64,000 nt of DNA from Thermoplasmatales archaeon SW_10_69_26 (lineage in GTDB: Archaea > Thermoplasmatota > SW-10-69-26): positions 1 to 64,000 of the forward strand of contig PXUB01000030.1 of NCBI GenBank assembly GCA_003009755.1, written 5' to 3'. Both the position numbers and the translations under genes were made by a program. The notes under the pieces are model-generated. The model had not been told where the DNA came from. It worked only from the letters and a program-made list of their open reading frames with translations, and did no database searches. Shown here piece after piece: positions 19,882 to 49,365 of this stretch. Position 1 is the stretch's first letter, and every line of letters starts with the position of its first letter.

Positions 19882-20061
19882 GCCCCCGAAGCGGAACCAG
19901 GGCCTCGTAAACGTTTGCCTCCCCCGGTGGGTGAACGAACGGTCGACGGGGGAGGGGAGGAGGGCAGCGGGCGGGCGAGGTGAGCGCCGGGGCGCGGTCG
20001 TGGGAGGGGACGAGAGGTGGAGGAAACGAGGGAACAGAGGTGGCACCAACGTGAGGCTGAG

Positions 20062-20756
20062 GCGAGCATCCGACCGTGCGGTATCCCCCGGCCAAGGATG
20101 CTCGCAGTTCGGGCGGATCGGAGATCCGCCTTCCTTCGAGGGTCGGACCCGTGTGGTCGCCGCCGGGTCAGCGACCCTCGAAGTTCGCCAGAATCGTGTG
20201 CTCGGTGTCGGTTCGGGCTTCTGCGAGCATCGGACCGCACGGTGGGCACCGGTCAACGATGCTCGCAGTTCGCACGGCCTCGGCGGTGGGCGTGGTCGGC
20301 CGTGCTCTCCCGAGAGACCGCCTTCTGCGGACGCGAGGTGCCCGAGGGGCTGCGGTCTCTCGGGATTCGTACCCCCGGCTACATCCTATCCTCTGTGGAC
20401 GATGGCTGTGAGGATAGGATGTACGCGAGCATCCGACCGTGTGGTATCCCCCGGCCAAGGATGCTCGCAGTTCGCACGAACGCCCGGGCAAGTGGCACCC
20501 GGCGTTCGTGCTCTCCTCAGCTCCAGCTGTCGCTCTGTCGACCTGCTGGAGCTGAGGACGGTGGTTACCGGTGGTCGCTCGGGGTCTTCACATCAGGCCT
20601 CTGCGAGCATCGGACCGCACGGTGGGCACCGGTCAACGATGCTCGCAGTTCGTACGAACGTCGGCTCTCTCTCCACGAGGTCTGCAGAGCAGACGTTCGT
20701 ACTCCCGCTACATCCTATCCTCTGTGAGGCTGTGGCTGTGAGGATAGGATGTAGCG
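20062..20756. repeat. Mosaic array of hairpin modules 3' of tRNA-Arg(GCG)
   Basis: Four copies of gcgagcatc...gatgctcgcagttcg, two copies of tacatcctatcctc...gaggataggatgta, and other palindromes joined by 1-4 nt linkers. Confidence 0.9.
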
Positions 20757-20828
20757 GGCGCGCCGTGATTTGAACACGGGTCCTGGCCTCCGCAAGGCCG
20801 GAGGATATCCAAACTACCCTACGCGCCC
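20755..20828 (-). tRNA. tRNA-Arg(GCG)
   Basis: Cloverleaf GGGCGCG...UU-GCG-GA...GUUCAAAUC...CGCGCCC-G; CCA not encoded. Confidence 0.96.
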
Positions 20829-20899
20829 GGGCTGCATCCGCCGAAGAGAAGGGACCCCTTCTTAGCCCTTTGCACGGCTCGGGTGAGCCTCGCACGGCG

Positions 20900-21045
20900 C
20901 TACAGCTCGTCGCGGATCAGGCCGACGACGAGGAGCAGCGAGGCCAGGGCCAGCAACGCCACGAGCAGGCCGACGGCGGCCACCCAGCCGGTCTGGTCGA
21001 CCAGCGTCCCGGTCACGACGCTGCCGGAGGCTACCACGAGCCGGA
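20900..21045 (-). pseudogene. C-terminal remnant of a membrane (MFS-like) transporter
   Basis: ASGSVVTGTLVDQTGWVAAVGLLVALL resembles MFS TM11-12; no upstream body. Confidence 0.45.
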
Positions 21046-21107
21046 CGCGAGAGGGTCCCGTATGCTTTCCCCAGGGACCCAGCGCAGGGCCGACGAGCCT
21101 TCCGCCC

Positions 21108-21479
21108 TCAGCCGTCGGTGACCGGGTGGGCGACCGTGCTCGACAGCGCGTTCTCGGCCTGGCGGGAGTCCAGGCGGGTGTGCTGGACGACGACCGGGTG
21201 GTCGGCCTCGACGACGCTGGCGAAGGGCGTGGCCCTCGGGACCGGCTCGGGATCTCGCGCTCGTCGAACCGCAGGTGGCGGGTCCGATCGGCCCGCACCG
21301 TGGCCTCGTCGGGGCCCACCGGTTCGCGGTCGGGGAAGGGGATCGTCAGCTCGACCGAAGCATCCCGGTCGCCAGCGTCGAGGGGCAACGGTCTCGTGGC
21401 TGATCATCTCGGGTTCGGGCCCGTGGCTGCCCTCGGGGATGTAGCCTTCGGCGATCGCCCAGCGACGCTTGCCGATCAC
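21108..21479 (-). pseudogene. Sensory rhodopsin transducer (ASRT/DUF1362) homologue with two compensating frameshifts
   Basis: IGKRRWAIAEGYIP..SHGPEP..SHETV and PVVVQHTRLDSRQAENAL in one frame; the middle DREPVGP...RTRHLRF lies in another frame. Confidence 0.85.
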
Positions 21480-21597
21480 GGGATCCGACCCGAGGGCCCG
21501 CGGGGGCTTTGACAACCGACCGAGGCATACCTGTCGGCCCTCGCGAAGATGTCGGCCTGGCGTGATCTCAATACCCGATGCCTTGTGAGGGTTGGTC

Positions 21598-23451
21598 GTG
21601 GCCTATCGTCCGATCGCCGAGTACACCGCCATCGGGAATGACGACCGATGCGCGCTGGTCGATCGCCACGGCTCGATCGACTGGTGCTGTTTCCCCACCG
21701 TCGCCTCCCCGAGCGTGTTCGCTCGCATCCTCGACGACGAGGAGGGCGGCCACTTCTCGGTGCATCCCACGGCCACCTACGAGAGCGACCAGACCTACCT
21801 CGACTGGACCAACGTCCTCCAGACGGTGTTCCAGACCCGGACCGGCCGAGCCACCTTGACCGACTTCATGCCCGTCGGCGAACGCGGGAGCGTCCAGCGA
21901 TCGATCTACCGCCAACTTCGCTGCGACGAAGGCCGGCTGGGGTTCGAGGCCGAGTTCAAGCCCCGCCCCGACTACGGCCGCGCCGAGACCAAGGTCAAAC
22001 GACGACGCAACAGCATCGTCGCCGTCGGCGACGGGGACCGGCTGCACCTGCAGACGTGCGGCCCGATCCACCTCACCACCAGGGGCGACCGCGCCGTCGG
22101 GACCGGGACGATCGCCGAAGGCGAATCCGTCTGGTTCGTCGCCCAGCACGGACACTTCCAGAAGGTCACCGCCGAGGAATGCCACGAGCGCGAGGAGGCG
22201 ACCGTCGAGCACTGGCGCGAGTGGACCGAGGGCCTGAAGCCGCGTGTCGACCAGATCGTCGGCGACGAGCCCTGGCAGGAGGAGATCGTGCGCTCGGCGC
22301 TCGTGCTCAAGCTGTTGATCCACGAGTCCAGCGGTGCGATCTACGCCGCGCCCACGACCTCCCTCCCGGAGGCCTACGGCGGCACGCGCAACTGGGACTA
22401 CCGCTACAACTGGATCCGCGACGCGAAGTTCACCGTGCAGGTGCTCTACAACCTCGGCGAGACGAAGGAGGTCCAGGACTACTTCGACTGGTTCCGCGAG
22501 GTCAGCCACGAGGACCCCGAGCACATCCAGCCCGTCTACGGCGTGCACGGCGAACACGACCTGCCCGAGCACCAGCTCGACGACCTGGCCGGTCACCGGC
22601 ACTCGCAACCGGTCCGCGTCGGCAACGAAGCCGCCAACCAGCACCAGCTCGACGTCTACGGCGCGATCGTGCAGGGCCTGTACGAGACGCTGATCCACGA
22701 CGGCGGGCTCGACGGCGACGACTGGCGGTCGATCCGGTCGATCCTCAACCACGTCTGCAAGGTCTGGACGGAGCCCGACGAGGGGATCTGGGAGTTCCGC
22801 AAAGGGCCTCGCCACTACGTCCACTCCAAGCTGCTTTGCTGGGTGGCCCTCGACCGCGGCATCCGCATGGGCCGCCGCTACGACAAAGACGCCCCCTTGG
22901 GGCGATGGAGCAAGGAGAAGACCGAGATCCGCGAGGCGATCCTCGAGCACGGCTACAGCGAGGAAGCGAACACGTTCGTGCAGCACTTCGAGACCGACGA
23001 CCTGCTCGACGCCACGGGGCTTTTGATCCCGATCTACGGCTTCCTCCCGACGAAGGACGAGCGCGTACAGAACACCATCCAGCGCGTCATCAGCCGGTTG
23101 CTGACCCCCGAGGGCCTCGTCTACCGGACACGGCAAGAGGCCGAGGCCGACGGCCGCGGCGCCTTCCTGATGTGCTCGTTCTGGCTGGTCAACGCGCTCG
23201 TCCTCGACGGCCGCGAAGAGAAGGCGCGCGAGATCTTCCAGGGGATCCTCAGCCACGTCGACCGGCCGACCCTGTTGGCCGAACGCATCGACCCCGACAC
23301 GAGCGAGTTCCTCGGCAACTACCCGCAAGCGTTCAGCCACATCGGCCTGATCAACAGCGCGATCTACCTCTCCAGCGCCTCCAACGAGCGCAACCCCGAG
23401 CACGACCCCGTCGAGGACGGGCCCGACCTCACGCCCCTGTTCCGGATCTAA
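21598..23451 (+). CDS. Glycoside hydrolase family 15 (trehalase/glucoamylase-like)
   Basis: GSIDWCCFP, AAPTTSLPE, RNWDYRYNWIRD, GIWEFR, LGNYPQAFSH. Confidence 0.95.
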   Translation: MAYRPIAEYTAIGNDDRCALVDRHGSIDWCCFPTVASPSVFARILDDEEGGHFSVHPTATYESDQTYLDWTNVLQTVFQTRTGRATLTDFMPVGERGSVQRSIYRQLRCDEGRLGFEAEFKPRPDYGRAETKVKRRRNSIVAVGDGDRLHLQTCGPIHLTTRGDRAVGTGTIAEGESVWFVAQHGHFQKVTAEECHEREEATVEHWREWTEGLKPRVDQIVGDEPWQEEIVRSALVLKLLIHESSGAIYAAPTTSLPEAYGGTRNWDYRYNWIRDAKFTVQVLYNLGETKEVQDYFDWFREVSHEDPEHIQPVYGVHGEHDLPEHQLDDLAGHRHSQPVRVGNEAANQHQLDVYGAIVQGLYETLIHDGGLDGDDWRSIRSILNHVCKVWTEPDEGIWEFRKGPRHYVHSKLLCWVALDRGIRMGRRYDKDAPLGRWSKEKTEIREAILEHGYSEEANTFVQHFETDDLLDATGLLIPIYGFLPTKDERVQNTIQRVISRLLTPEGLVYRTRQEAEADGRGAFLMCSFWLVNALVLDGREEKAREIFQGILSHVDRPTLLAERIDPDTSEFLGNYPQAFSHIGLINSAIYLSSASNERNPEHDPVEDGPDLTPLFRI

Positions 23452-25016
23452 GGCTGCACGGCCTCGCCGGGCCGCTGCAGACAGGTCGTCATGACGTCGG
23501 CCTTCTCGTTCCGTGTGTCGACCCAGGCCGGCCAGGCGCACTCGACCGAGCTGTCGATCTCGATGTAGTCGCCGAGGAACGTGAACCCGCCCTGGTGCTT
23601 GCTGTAGGAGGGGTCGCTGGAGACGTCGGTCACCCGGGACTCCATCGACCAGGACTCGCCTCCGTCCACGCTGTAGCGGTGGTAGACGTCCAGCAGACGG
23701 TTGTCCTCGTCGTGGCGGCGGTCGTACCAGGACACGTCGACCACACCGTTGGGGTTGACGCTGATCGTCGGCAGGAACTGGTCGTTCTCGGTCGCGTCCT
23801 CGTTCAACGGGATCGGATCGCTCCACGTCTCGCCGCCGTCGCTGCTGCGCGTGAAGAACACGTCACGGTGCCCGTCAGGCGTGGCCGCGTACACCATGTA
23901 CACGTTCCCGTCGTGGGGGCCTCCGGTCTCGTCGGCCTCCACCATGCAGATCTGCCCGCTGCGGTACTCGGCCTCCATGCCCTCGTCGACGGCGTGCACG
24001 ACCTTCTCCCAGTCCCCGAAGCTCTCGCCGCCGTCGGTGCTCTTCGCCAGGTAGGGCCCCTCGCTCGTGCAACCGCTCACGTAGACGGTGCTCTGGGAGC
24101 CGGTGGCGACGAACAGCTGGCTCGGACTCGTGCTCTCGGCGGGCGTGTTGTTGAGCGCCTCGGGCGTGCTCAGGGACGTCGGGAGGTTGTCGAGCAGGAC
24201 CGGGCCCTCCCAGGTCTCGCCCTGGTCGTTGGACTTGTAGACGAGGTTGCCGGGCGTGAAGATGCCGTCCCAGGCGACGTAGACGGTGCCGGTCTCCTGG
24301 TCGGCGGCGATCCACTGCCGGTCGTGGAAGTTGACGGGGAACGTGCCCGAATCGATGAGGGTGACGTCGCTGATCGTCTCGCCGCCGTCGTGGCTGACCA
24401 TGACGCCGATGCTCACCCGGTTGAACGCGACGTCGTTCAGCCCGCTGCAGGGGACCGCGCCCGTTTCGTTGTTCACCGCGCACGTCGCCGTCTCGCCCAA
24501 CGCGCTGCCCGTGACCGGGTCGCCCTGGTAGGCCAGGAAGGTGTAGTACATCGTGCCCTCGGGCCCGAACTCGACCACCGGATCGGACATGCACCAGTAC
24601 TGGCTGGCCTCGTTGGCCTCGAAGGCCGAGCGGTTGTTCATCGCCAACCACGGCGAACCGGGCAGGTTGCGGCTGTCGAAGGTCTCCCCGCCGTCCTGCG
24701 TCACATAGATGCCGTCCCAGACGCAGTCGCCGGCCGACTCGGGGTAGTAGTCCTTGGCGCCGGCGACGACGTTGTCCGCGTCGGCCGGGTTGACGGCGAC
24801 CGTGACCTCGTTGCCCTCGCGATCGGGCTCGTTCAGCGTGTCGTAGTTGCAGGACTGGTTCCCGCCGCGCTCGACGCACCGAGGTTCGGCGGCCACCAGC
24901 TCCTCGTCCTCGAGGACCGAGGCCTCCTCGAGGCTCTCGTCCTCGGCTCCGATGCAGCCAGCCAGCATCGGGGACACCAGAGCCAGCGCGAGCGCGACAG
25001 CGACGGTCGAACGCAT
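23448..25016 (-). CDS. BNR/Asp-box repeat (sialidase-like) lipoprotein
   Basis: LAGC lipobox; SxDGGETW repeats; WYDRR; FLGDY. Confidence 0.85.
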   Translation of the reverse strand: MRSTVAVALALALVSPMLAGCIGAEDESLEEASVLEDEELVAAEPRCVERGGNQSCNYDTLNEPDREGNEVTVAVNPADADNVVAGAKDYYPESAGDCVWDGIYVTQDGGETFDSRNLPGSPWLAMNNRSAFEANEASQYWCMSDPVVEFGPEGTMYYTFLAYQGDPVTGSALGETATCAVNNETGAVPCSGLNDVAFNRVSIGVMVSHDGGETISDVTLIDSGTFPVNFHDRQWIAADQETGTVYVAWDGIFTPGNLVYKSNDQGETWEGPVLLDNLPTSLSTPEALNNTPAESTSPSQLFVATGSQSTVYVSGCTSEGPYLAKSTDGGESFGDWEKVVHAVDEGMEAEYRSGQICMVEADETGGPHDGNVYMVYAATPDGHRDVFFTRSSDGGETWSDPIPLNEDATENDQFLPTISVNPNGVVDVSWYDRRHDEDNRLLDVYHRYSVDGGESWSMESRVTDVSSDPSYSKHQGGFTFLGDYIEIDSSVECAWPAWVDTRNEKADVMTTCLQRPGEAVQP

Positions 25017-25146
25017 CGGCCCTCCATCGCCGGGCAGCCCTTTGAAAGCTGCTGTGCAACAGGTCTCCGGGTCGTCCCATCGAGCCTGTGGTTTGTCCCT
25101 CAAACGCTTCACCCCACGTCCGGTCTCCCCTCGGTGAGTGATCCCG

Positions 25147-25836
25147 ATGGCTTCGAAGACGCGCGCGATCCTCCTGGCTGTCGTGTTGTTGGGCGCCGGG
25201 CTGGCCGGGTGTGCAGAGACCGACGACACCGGCACCGACGACACGACCGATGACGAAGACACCGGGGACCGAGATACCGGCGACCGCGACACCGGGGAGC
25301 GGGACACGGGTGAGCGCGACATCGGTGACCAGAACCAGACCGATCGCAACGATACCGGTACCCAAGACGCCCAGATGCAGGACTACAACGAGACCTTCGA
25401 GGGCACGATCGACGGTGAGAACCACGAGGAGAACTTCACGTTCCCGGTCAACGACTCCCAGGCCAACCTCACGGTCGAAGCCAACCTGCAGGGTGACGCG
25501 GTCGACGACTTCGAGGCCACCGTCTGGGACGCCGAGATGGAAGAGGTCTGCACGGTCTCCGACAGCGGCACCGACGTGGGAACCGGCATGGGTGACGACG
25601 AAAGCCGCTGCGAAGAGGCGACCCAGAACATGGGGAACTACACCCTGCAGGTCTGGGGCAACTCCACCACCGAGGACGCCGACTACACGCTCAACGTGAC
25701 CGTGGAGTACGGCGACCAGCAGACCACGACCGACGACACCGGCAACGGCGGCGACGATCGCCAGACCGATCCGCGGCAGACCGACGAGCGGCGGACCGGC
25801 GACGCGGACGGGTCCGACGACGGTATCTACAACTGA
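25147..25836 (+). CDS. Acidic lipoprotein with GDRDT pentapeptide repeats and a PPC-like beta domain
   Basis: LAGC lipobox; (GD/ERDT)n; GNYTLQV...YTLNVTVEY. Confidence 0.75.
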   Translation: MASKTRAILLAVVLLGAGLAGCAETDDTGTDDTTDDEDTGDRDTGDRDTGERDTGERDIGDQNQTDRNDTGTQDAQMQDYNETFEGTIDGENHEENFTFPVNDSQANLTVEANLQGDAVDDFEATVWDAEMEEVCTVSDSGTDVGTGMGDDESRCEEATQNMGNYTLQVWGNSTTEDADYTLNVTVEYGDQQTTTDDTGNGGDDRQTDPRQTDERRTGDADGSDDGIYN

Positions 25837-26049
25837 GCTCTCGGTCGGGCCGCCGTCGACACCCGACCCGGGCCGGGGCCCCAGGGGCCAGGGTCTGTCT
25901 TGCCCTCTGTTCTCATCGGCGACGGAGCGAGGGACACCGTCGCGCCGAGGCCACGCTGAGGCCGGATCGTCCACGGTCAGATGTTCGGGACGTCCACGCA
26001 GCGATCCCCGCGTGCGCTCGAGCCCGCTCGGCGAAGGAGACGTTCTTCC

Positions 26050-26272
26050 ATCGAGGGTTGGACCCAAGCGATGGGAGCCGGGTCAACAACCCTCGAAGTT
26101 CGCCCGAACCGGGCGCTAGATGTCGGTTCGGGCTCCCGCGAGCGTCAGACCGTGTGGTATCCTCCGGCCAAGGATGCTCGCAGCTCGCACGAACGCCCGG
26201 GCAAGTGGCGCCGGGCGTTCGTGCTCTCCTCAGCTCCAGCTGTCGCTCTGTCGACCTGCTGGAGCTGAGGAC
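26050..26272. repeat. Mosaic hairpin array 3' of tRNA-Arg(CCG)
   Basis: Same modules as 20134-20220 and 20425-20561, near-identical over about 135 bp. Confidence 0.9.
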
Positions 26273-26345
26273 GGGCGCGACGAGATTCGAACTCGTGTCC
26301 AAGGCTCCGGAAGCCCTAAGGATATCCAGACTACCCTACGCGCCC
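26272..26345 (-). tRNA. tRNA-Arg(CCG)
   Basis: Cloverleaf GGGCGCG...UU-CCG-GA...GUUCGAAUC...CGCGCCC-G. Confidence 0.96.
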
Positions 26346-26522
26346 GAGCTGGCGAGCCATCGGGCCCTCGTATGAAAACGTGATGGCCGAGCTCAGAAGG
26401 CCCATCGCTCGGGAGGGCCGTCAGCACCCTCCGGCCGCGCCCGCTCTGGTCGGCCCGCCGTCCGGTTCCGGTGCCGCCCGGTTCACGCTGTGGCTGCCCG
26501 AGCGGGAGCCGCGCCCCGTCGA

Positions 26523-48844: not shown

Positions 48845-48964
48845 TTCGACGTTTTACCGTCGAAGGTTTGCTCGGGAGACCTTGAATGCGATTAGCCACG
48901 CCGCGCCGCCTCACATCAAACTCTTATACGCCTCCCCCATATATCTGGCCTGCGCGGAAGCGTT

Positions 48965-49037
48965 GCGGGTGTAGTATAGTCTGGTAGTACACGGCCTTGC
49001 CATGGCCGTTGCGCGTGTTCAAATCACGCCACCCGCA
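48965..49037 (+). tRNA. tRNA-Gly(GCC)
   Basis: GCGGGUG...CGGCC-UUGCCAU-GGCCG...GUUCAAAUC...CACCCGC-A; TATA-like elements upstream. Confidence 0.96.
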
Positions 49038-49365
49038 TCCTCTCTCGCGTTGATTCCTCAGGGACTCCCATCGCCAGGCTCGGCTGAGGGGCCGCTGGCG
49101 GTGTCGCGCTGCATCGGAATCCCTCCGAGGGAGCGTCACGTGCGGGTGGCGTGAGCGGACGGCCGGCCGCAGCCACCGCCGAGGGCGTGCGAATCGAGAG
49201 CATCCGTAGCCGACGCGACCGTGCGGCTCGATGCTCTCGAGTGGCCAGATCTGCGATCTGGTCGAATCTCAGGGCCGACGGCGGAAATCGCCCGTCGGTC
49301 CTGAAGCCACCCGCATCCTCTCTCGCGTCGAGTCCTCGGTTCGCACGGCCTTCGGCCGTGCTCTC
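49028..49365. repeat. tRNA-Gly trailer with direct and inverted copies of the tRNA 3' end and hairpin modules
   Basis: 23-bp direct repeat 49028-49050 / 49306-49328; 14-bp inverted copy 49141-49154; hairpins related to those at the tRNA-Arg genes. Confidence 0.85.

Follow-up and report, generated by a model that had tools for sequence, protein, structure and literature searches.

This locus raises the question of how two nearby tRNA-Arg genes came to be followed by the same hairpin modules in different compositions, and of what those modules are. The preliminary description had proposed that modules are shuffled or copied between tRNA loci. The reading that we favour, with modest confidence, is that they form co-transcribed, REP/BIME-like hairpin cassettes of 3' flanks, which would evolve via local duplication and gene conversion. 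The window, meaning the whole 64-kb stretch of DNA analysed, is contig C30:1-64000 of a 2.82-Mb, 49-contig metagenome-assembled genome (MAG; about 69% G+C, 95% complete). An Rfam scan found an archaeal RNase P RNA encoded in it, and near-identical DNA was recovered from public sequencing runs of halite metagenomes only. Among 80 related loci considered for the PLP enzyme encoded in the flank, 2 are archaeal, from uncultured Thermoplasmatales MAGs at 71% protein identity, and 78 are bacterial. The labels T1, T2, T3 and J-type, and the grammar set out below, were coined in this analysis. The features of the tRNA-Arg(CCG) trailer, here called array 2, and of its spacer are as follows, in the order in which they follow the tRNA.

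26272 to 26345, minus strand: tRNA-Arg(CCG) (Rfam RF00005, 51.7 bits; ARAGORN gives 26269-26346).
26227 to 26271, minus strand: hairpin I, a J-type trailer hairpin with a 14-bp stem and a 17-nt loop (from the fold; identical to 20514-20558).
26187 to 26224, minus strand: hairpin H, type T2, with GAGAG before it and a CGAAY-like linker after it.
26138 to 26181, minus strand: hairpin A, type T1 (nhmmer; covariance model (CM) R1, 57.9 bits; alignment A1).
26102 to 26133, minus strand: hairpin D, a short T2-type hairpin with stem GCCCGAACCG (its homologue at about 20187-20218 has two broken pairs).
26051 to 26096, minus strand: hairpin C, a T1 variant with outer stem TCGAGGGTTG (pattern match; CM R1, 63.4 bits; compensatory pair relative to 20137-20182).
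25843 to 25910, no strand assigned: a hairpin-containing 68-nt stretch in the same spacer as array 2 (joint 25842>25911 in contigs of two other halite runs).

The order C-D-A-H-I adjoining tRNA-Arg(CCG), as first described, was recovered in full, with all five hairpins placed within 26051-26271. They start right after the discriminator of the tRNA, are joined by linkers of 2-5 nt, and open with hairpin I, the first module of the I-H-A cassette; in hairpin A two outer-stem positions are unpaired. A 236-nt stretch at this trailer folds at -142.6 kcal/mol, compared with -95.6 +/- 5.3 kcal/mol in 200 dinucleotide shuffles (z = -8.9), none of which folded equally well (0/200). Array 2 is one J-T2-T1 cassette (I-H-A) followed by one T2-T1 double hairpin (D-C). 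The stretch 25843-25910 is a strain-level indel, skipped in contigs of two other halite runs. Contigs from four halite runs are short and end within the arrays, bridging neither, and beyond the 68-nt indel they show only a few loop changes.

The second array lies behind tRNA-Arg(GCG), on the same strand, and its modules were placed as follows.

20755 to 20828, minus strand: tRNA-Arg(GCG) (ARAGORN; RF00005, 45.6 bits in a narrow scan).
20040 to 20754, minus strand: array 1 as a whole, behind tRNA-Arg(GCG) (module calls and internal repeats).
20708 to 20754, minus strand: J.
20652 to 20702, minus strand: H''.
20603 to 20646, minus strand: A''.
20559 to 20600, minus strand: X.
20514 to 20558, minus strand: I.
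20474 to 20511, minus strand: H.
20425 to 20468, minus strand: A.
20380 to 20423, minus strand: J'.
20308 to 20365, minus strand: T3.
20272 to 20305, minus strand: H'.
20223 to 20266, minus strand: A'.
About 20187 to 20218, minus strand: D.
20137 to 20182, minus strand: C.
About 20112 to 20130, minus strand: T4.
20062 to 20105, minus strand: A'''.

The tRNA-Arg(GCG) gene was missed by window-wide Rfam scans and reached 45.6 bits in a 131-nt scan, a loss at the filter and not the mark of a defective gene; its anticodon stem, read off the alignment, has one C-A mismatch. In the sense of the tRNA, array 1 reads tRNA, J, H''.A'', X, I, H.A, J', T3, H'.A', D.C, T4.A'''. It contains three cassettes headed by a J-type hairpin, together with two additional double hairpins. 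Repeats within the array are 90-98% identical at spacings of 330, 363 and 380 nt, and it is a mosaic rather than a simple tandem array. Hairpin I, which adjoins tRNA-Arg(CCG) at 26227-26271, is internal here (20514-20558), just as had been stated.

Alignment of both arrays, which the preliminary description had suggested, showed them to be mosaics and not products of colinear decay. A-H-I (26137-26274) matches 20424-20561 at 96% over 138 nt without a gap (BLAST E 1.7e-57), I being identical and the differences being confined to A, H and one linker, so the near-match reported for 20425-20561 is confirmed. The resemblance of C-D to 20134-20220 also held, and its colinear part proved slightly longer than described, since it takes in an A-type hairpin (26045-26191 against 20130-20276, 79% over 147 nt, ungapped). 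The module order of array 1 shows the counterparts of C-D and A-H-I to be separated by other modules, as described. The two tRNA-Arg genes are 83% identical to each other. A compensatory change in module C was likewise found at one pair (alignment positions 103-132), which is T-A in array 2 and C-G in array 1; it is the sole both-sided change within the two sequences of the 79% match. Of the other pairs in this match, four stay paired through a G-U or a change on one side only, whereas four, including two in D, no longer pair in array 1. The claim that stems are kept and loops drift was borne out by the differing columns of this match, 10/94 among paired and 21/53 among unpaired positions (Fisher p 9e-5), with the structure predicted from one of the two compared sequences.

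The preliminary description had named, as what would refute it, descent of both arrays from one old tRNA duplication followed by colinear decay, with no rearrangement of modules elsewhere. Such an origin is barely credible. While the tRNA-Arg genes are ancestral neighbours and C-D-A is colinear at 79%, the 96% block I-H-A is placed differently in the two module orders, three J-type hairpins and repeats at the three spacings given above occur in array 1, and the same module types were found at 23 loci, 21 of them besides these two. A recent copy of I-H-A between the two tRNA-Arg loci accounts for 96% identity against 83% for the tRNA genes and 79% for C-D-A. Copying between these loci was thus upheld; the unit moved, however, was a whole three-hairpin cassette (J-type, T2 and T1) and not a single module.

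The hairpins of both arrays belong to a few recurrent types. T1 (A, C) has two stems, the outer one of 10-11 bp and the inner one of 5-6 bp, with a YT bulge on the 5' side, and ACC is conserved in its loop; CGAAT or CGAAC stands before the hairpin and usually GAGAG after it. T2 (H, D), a looser and heterogeneous class, closes with G-N-A-C-G...C-G-T-N-C, is preceded by GAGAG and always lies 5' of a T1. T3 has a stem around GAGACCGC and a loop with CATCGGG, and is often the first hairpin behind protein genes; among its sites with an orientation motif 8/10 have a same-strand upstream neighbour, one lies within a CDS and one is opposite. J-type hairpins, to which I and J belong, are long, have an ACAGC-rich loop and come first in the chain behind tRNAs. 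The grammar is J-type (after a tRNA) or T3 (after a CDS), then GAGAG, T2, CGAAY and T1, with further T2-T1 double hairpins appended in longer chains, and I-H-A is exactly one J-T2-T1 cassette.

Iterated nhmmer searches gave 39 copies of T1 at 23 loci of the 2.8-Mb MAG, and 37 of the 39 were used to build alignment A1 and the covariance model R1. R1 recovered 56 matches in its own genome at E<=0.01, including a few antisense doubles, and it scored nearly all full-length genomic T1 copies at 54-84 bits. T1 stems are paired in 95.1% of alignment cells, with both-sided changes in 15/17 pairs; no shuffle (0/500) reached any of the five measures used, and slid partners pair in 27-37%. In the survey of tRNA trailers, a perfect stem of at least 9 bp starting at -11 to +5 of the tRNA end was present in 18/47 tRNA genes compared with 28/470 shuffled trailers, and about 12 of those 18 hairpins are J-type, with loops read by eye.

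The window contains one further T1-bearing trailer.

49041 to 49262, plus strand: third T1-bearing trailer, behind tRNA-Gly(GCC) at 48964-49040 (fold, nhmmer, CM).

It consists of a long hairpin pairing with the 3' end of the tRNA, followed by a T2, a T1 (49183-49240) and one more hairpin, which is short. Among tRNA-Gly and tRNA-Leu genes there are several trailers (48964-49262; G000 C2, C3, C27, C47) in which the last 12-14 nt of the tRNA form the 5' arm of the hairpin, and read-through RNA of such trailers could fold so as to hide the acceptor and T-stem strand. About ten tRNA genes (e.g. C14:16284-16410, C42:19075-19200, C46:10660-10784) carry behind them a cloverleaf-like cassette of about 115 nt, made of an inverted copy of the tRNA 3' end, two or three hairpins and a direct 3'-end copy. 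Behind a tRNA-Gly(CCC) and its J-T2-T1 modules lies an ORF for a tyrosine integrase (PF00589, 49 bits; G000:C2:31974-35429; L018, L049), and about 105 nt (the tRNA-Gly(CCC) 3' end, J and T2) recur some 4.4 kb further on, at about G000:C2 37560-37680; the region is a small integrated element, and hairpin modules form part of its attachment repeat. Tyrosine integrases (3 matches) were rejected as a source of the modules, as they lie beside other tRNAs and leave the modules unexplained.

The T1 hairpins follow a strict placement rule. A same-strand upstream neighbour gene was found for 39/39 copies and at 23/23 loci, in spacers that are unidirectional at 8 loci, convergent at 14 and divergent at none, the remaining locus being at a contig end. 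All of the unidirectional loci are in sense (8/8, p 0.004). Convergent loci alone are uninformative on strand; at 12/14 of them the array is closer to the co-oriented gene (p 0.006; hand count). Divergent spacers hold 0/22 loci, although they make up 30% of spacers of at least 150 nt (p 4e-4). The gene calls come from our own crude caller, and we consider them sound because 18/19 upstream ORFs have Pfam matches. At several loci the cassette starts 0-10 nt past the stop codon or discriminator, and among 13 further weak CM matches 9 have a same-strand upstream gene, 3 are placed otherwise and 1 is at a contig end.

By hand count, 5/23 T1-bearing loci lie behind a tRNA (Arg twice and Gly twice by nhmmer, with a weaker CM match behind tRNA-Asn) and 18 behind protein genes. 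The upstream genes are mostly core genes, namely those of ribosomal proteins S2 and S7, Spt5, TFB, MCM, Cdc6, FttA/aCPSF1 and CDC48, and also of FBPase, COX3 and a class II aminoacyl-tRNA synthetase, among others; in one case the upstream gene is an IS1595 transposase whose own insertion site lies within an array. The hairpin modules are thus a genome-wide 3'-flank repeat system and not a phenomenon of tRNA loci, and with 18/23 loci behind protein genes the proposed shuffling among tRNA loci is not supported as a tRNA-specific process.

Strong covariation and very stable folds would also be expected if the hairpins were independent small structured RNA genes, an sRNA family standing behind genes by chance. 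This is very improbable, as promoter-like spacing was not noted, linkers of 2-5 nt are all that separates the modules from one another and from the gene upstream, and the family is conserved in one genus only. At the gathering score Rfam 15 reported only tRNAs and RNase P in the window; in 19900-26450 at E<=1 the sole extra was a 28-bit miRNA match, at chance level for a model whose gathering score is 74. C/D or H/ACA guide RNAs, K-turns, BHB splice sites, attC sites and CRISPR repeats were rejected because their defining boxes or bulges are absent, as judged from the sequence, the models run being those of Rfam.

Whether the hairpins act as RNA or as DNA was approached through strand asymmetry. 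On the sense strand of T1, G-U pairs outnumber A-C by 18 to 6 (about p 0.02, binomial). This ratio is unsupported at array level, because whole-array folds favour neither strand: the sense fold is the more stable at 13/23 loci (Wilcoxon p 0.99), and the sense folds contain 106 G-U pairs, the antisense folds 159. The constraint on the hairpins could thus act on DNA. It is nevertheless distinctly improbable that they are DNA elements, protein-bound cruciform or single-strand sites serving topology, replication or recombination. The absence of strand preference in the array folds, the more numerous antisense G-U pairs, stems that are kept as loops drift, and conserved linkers and loop ACC would all suit such sites; a symmetric site, however, needs no fixed orientation, yet 8/8 unidirectional loci are in sense, and the sense strand of T1 shows the 18 to 6 excess.

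The array-bearing spacers are also poor in oligo-T. In 22/23 of them there is no run of four or more T, so that the T-run that marks an archaeal oligo-T or a bacterial intrinsic terminator is missing, and T5 occurs in 3.1% of 826 3' flanks. Genome-wide 3' flanks (400 sampled) are slightly more structured than shuffles (median -41.0 against -38.3 kcal/mol), and because they barely exceed the shuffles most genes must do without such arrays. In another family of the class, the tRNA-Arg(CCG) trailer at G018:C121 (L016) 1199-1230 is a plain T-rich tract (TTTTTT) with no hairpin. Hairpin trailers may have replaced ordinary oligo-T terminators within the family studied here.

We favour an RNA-level role for the cassettes because of their sense placement, their abutment to stop codons and discriminators, the G-U excess of T1 and the scarcity of oligo-T. 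Counted against their co-transcription with the gene upstream are the strand-neutral array folds, positions that are not conserved, and the confinement of T1 to its own genome and G002.

The mobility of the modules was assessed from their ends, their orientation and the enzymes encoded. Every T1 copy (39/39) has the orientation of the others in its array, as does every module of the two tRNA-Arg arrays, and units stand head to tail with no inverted doublets. Terminal inverted repeats and target duplications were not seen at module ends, and I-H-A, too, showed no end duplications. MAG assemblies frequently miss the genes of mobile elements. Y1 transposase (PF01797) gave no match in the own genome (0/1, 95% complete) or in five relatives of the family (0/5, 72-89% complete), although control genomes gave matches, and the TnpB zinc-ribbon domain (PF07282) and RVT_1 gave no match in the own genome; absence from MAGs is no proof of absence, and the own MAG is 95% complete.

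The only IS seen near the arrays belongs to the IS1595 family, with ends GGGTGCTGAnCG..TCAATA; it is inserted into arrays and does not bound modules. Its ends adjoin GAGAG-type linkers at 7/16 pattern matches (G000 C4:61613, C6:100, C14:16996, C14:17337, C39:54644, C47:43611 and C47:44640). IS1595 transposase domains are found in L148, and the C47 copy splits a cassette between T3 and T2-T1 with an 8-bp duplication. By analogy with some bacterial IS that target REPs, the IS1595-family element appears to target the arrays.

These results bear on the possibility, which we hold doubtful, that modules or cassettes are non-autonomous mobile DNA (REPIN-, MITE- or PATE-like) moved in trans by an enzyme that is unassembled or unrecognisable, the placement rule then reflecting target choice or purifying selection against insertions into promoters. 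The family is dispersed over 23 loci and lineage-restricted, the arrays are mosaic at cassette level, the spacer of array 2 carries the 68-nt strain-level indel, and the IS1595-family ends lie at linkers, as expected from IS that target bacterial REPs; PMC3733652 places REPs, too, mainly between unidirectional and convergent genes. Set against mobility are the want of near-identical copies at unlinked loci (median best identity 0.83, maximum 0.89 outside the tRNA-Arg pair), the featureless module ends, the failure to find Y1 transposase in 6/6 family genomes and TnpB or RT in the own genome, and the single head-to-tail orientation, which is unlike that of REPIN doublets.

The closest known kind is REP/BIME. 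REPs, according to the same paper (PMC3733652), lie between convergent or unidirectional genes and downstream of coding regions, are believed to be transcribed and to affect the 3' ends of mRNAs, and in many families pair in opposite orientation; IS elements such as ISPpu9 are reported to target REPs in bacteria. The T1 hairpins share with REPs that they are short, G+C-rich imperfect palindromes in tens of copies (39 here), clustered and species-specific, that they occupy convergent and unidirectional spacers and rarely divergent ones (14/8/0 and 1 contig end), and that an IS lands in them. They differ in being archaeal, all head to tail and sense-locked, in their larger two-tier hairpins with fixed linkers (GAGAG/CGAAY), and in that no RAYT was found. 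The 37-copy alignment A1 shows neither a GTAG nor a CGTC tag in T1, the conserved flanks being CGAAY and GAGAG; the J hairpins of G000 and G005 begin with CTAC and end with GTAG, but inside the stem, and those of G002 and G003 do not.

REPIN-RAYT systems are reported to be persistent and vertically inherited populations of non-coding hairpin repeats with sequence variants in one lineage, and to that extent the T1 family, likewise a lineage-bound population of hairpin repeats with variants, resembles them; the single-copy Y1 (HUH) transposase by which these systems are defined gave no match in the own genome or in 5 relatives, and inverted doublets are absent. PATEs (palindrome-associated transposable elements) of haloarchaea derive from IS200/IS605 or IS1341 elements. 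The likeness lies in gene-less, hairpin-bearing repeats of salt-loving archaea, and the difference in the own genome having no TnpA (PF01797) or TnpB (PF07282) match and modules having no recognisable element ends. Membership of REPIN-RAYT and PATE (a name used in PMC3119063) therefore fails on the defining enzyme and on orientation. Nor do the modules look like a MITE of a DDE transposon, as IS1595-family ends do not bound them and no duplications were seen at the ends of I-H-A. These comparisons leave the rtT region downstream of E. coli tyrT. There, a tRNA trailer is made up of tandem units, and the tRNA 3' end may be duplicated among them. On contig C3, tRNA-Gly(TCC) is followed by arrays of a comparable kind; the modules here differ in also lying behind 18 protein-gene loci and in being hairpin cassettes with covarying stems.

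Across 41 genomes (the own and 40 relatives) R1 matched only its own genome and, with three weak matches of about 31-34 bits, G002; this restriction fits dispensable or selfish DNA. The grammar of G002 is alike (GAGAG, TACGAACG...CGTTCGTA, CGGATC, hairpin, GAGAG), with a different second hairpin, and G003 and G005 have T2-like hairpins behind tRNA-Arg genes. The hairpin system is thus family-wide, with sequences turning over between genera. Array positions are not kept: by eye, no arrays were seen in the 3' flanks of 3 S7 or 4 FttA orthologues of relatives, with the exception of one T2-like hairpin behind S7 in G002.

Outside the family, the T1 stem pattern matched at least 120 metagenome stretches and 5 viral stretches. 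These 125 loci were rejected as T1, being unrelated by eye (coding DNA or another repeat), and none of the first 100 exceeded 33.3 bits with R1. Unrelated metagenome contigs (L174, L176, L177, L200, L216, L232, L234, L257, L260, L272) carry palindrome pairs TTGCGAGCATCG...CGATGCTCGCAAG, about 100-230 nt apart, which form another hairpin repeat family with only a 10-nt stem in common with T1 (R1 33 bits or less). A metagenome scan with a degenerate pattern that covers the 3' half of each tRNA-Arg gene gave 0 matches.

High identity among T1 copies is local. Between a copy and its closest counterpart at a different locus, median identity is 0.83, with a maximum of 0.89 outside the tRNA-Arg pair, and all pairs at 0.93 or above lie within one array or between the two tRNA-Arg arrays, which are 5.7 kb apart. 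In 4/4 relatives holding both genes (four genera), tRNA-Arg(CCG) is directly followed by tRNA-Arg(GCG) at spacings of 100, 335, 991 and 1427 nt; here about 5.4 kb with several ORFs lie between them. The interval 20880-26050, which holds an ASRT-like ORF, a BNR/Asp-box repeat protein and unnamed ORFs, is missing between the tRNA-Arg genes of the four relatives; in it, 22274-22507 and 23210-23443 show very high summed contig depth in halite runs, as for a widely shared repeat domain.

Within single genomes, the two tRNA-Arg trailers are 0.87 (G002), 0.91 (G005) and 0.77 (G003) identical over their first 100 nt, compared with at most 0.70 (background) between genomes; the trailers of G001 lack such hairpins. 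In G005 the paralogous J hairpins differ by changes on both arms. As trailers are homogenised within G002, G005 and G003, repeated exchange between neighbouring tRNA-Arg trailers is a family trait, and the 96% I-H-A copy is the own genome's case of it, whichever way it was copied. Because T1 copies of high identity are confined to single arrays and to the tRNA-Arg pair, the pattern is better accounted for by local duplication and gene conversion than by general shuffling among tRNA loci.

In the favoured reading of co-transcribed 3'-flank cassettes, each would be transcribed together with the gene upstream as a structured 3' trailer or 3' UTR and would block 3' exonucleases, signal 3'-end formation or both, in a genome almost without oligo-T terminators. 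The cassettes would multiply in DNA by local tandem duplication and by short-tract gene conversion between nearby arrays, and this would be how I-H-A came to occur, at 96% identity, both next to one tRNA-Arg gene and within the array of the second. A bolder version, which we consider unlikely, is that in this family of halophilic Thermoplasmatota the hairpin cassettes are a code, a 3'-end-forming and protecting signal for tRNAs and core mRNAs, read at the linkers by a dedicated protein or RNase and renewed without transposase by array conversion.

For annotation, the arrays account for assembly breaks, for spurious ORFs at 20000-20800 and 25900-26400, and for odd tRNA-fragment repeats. To our knowledge, small palindromic repeats have been much studied in bacteria and hardly in archaea. 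This cassette family offers a clean case for how G+C-rich archaea without oligo-T tracts end and protect their transcripts, the more so as its strict sense placement includes the gene of the termination factor FttA itself. Should the cassettes be selfish, they would represent a repeat system that is transposase-less or served by a novel enzyme. If they act on RNA 3' ends, they would be a lineage-specific signal for termination or stability, and if the 3'-end code is true, an orientation-locked archaeal counterpart of REP/BIME with a defined grammar.
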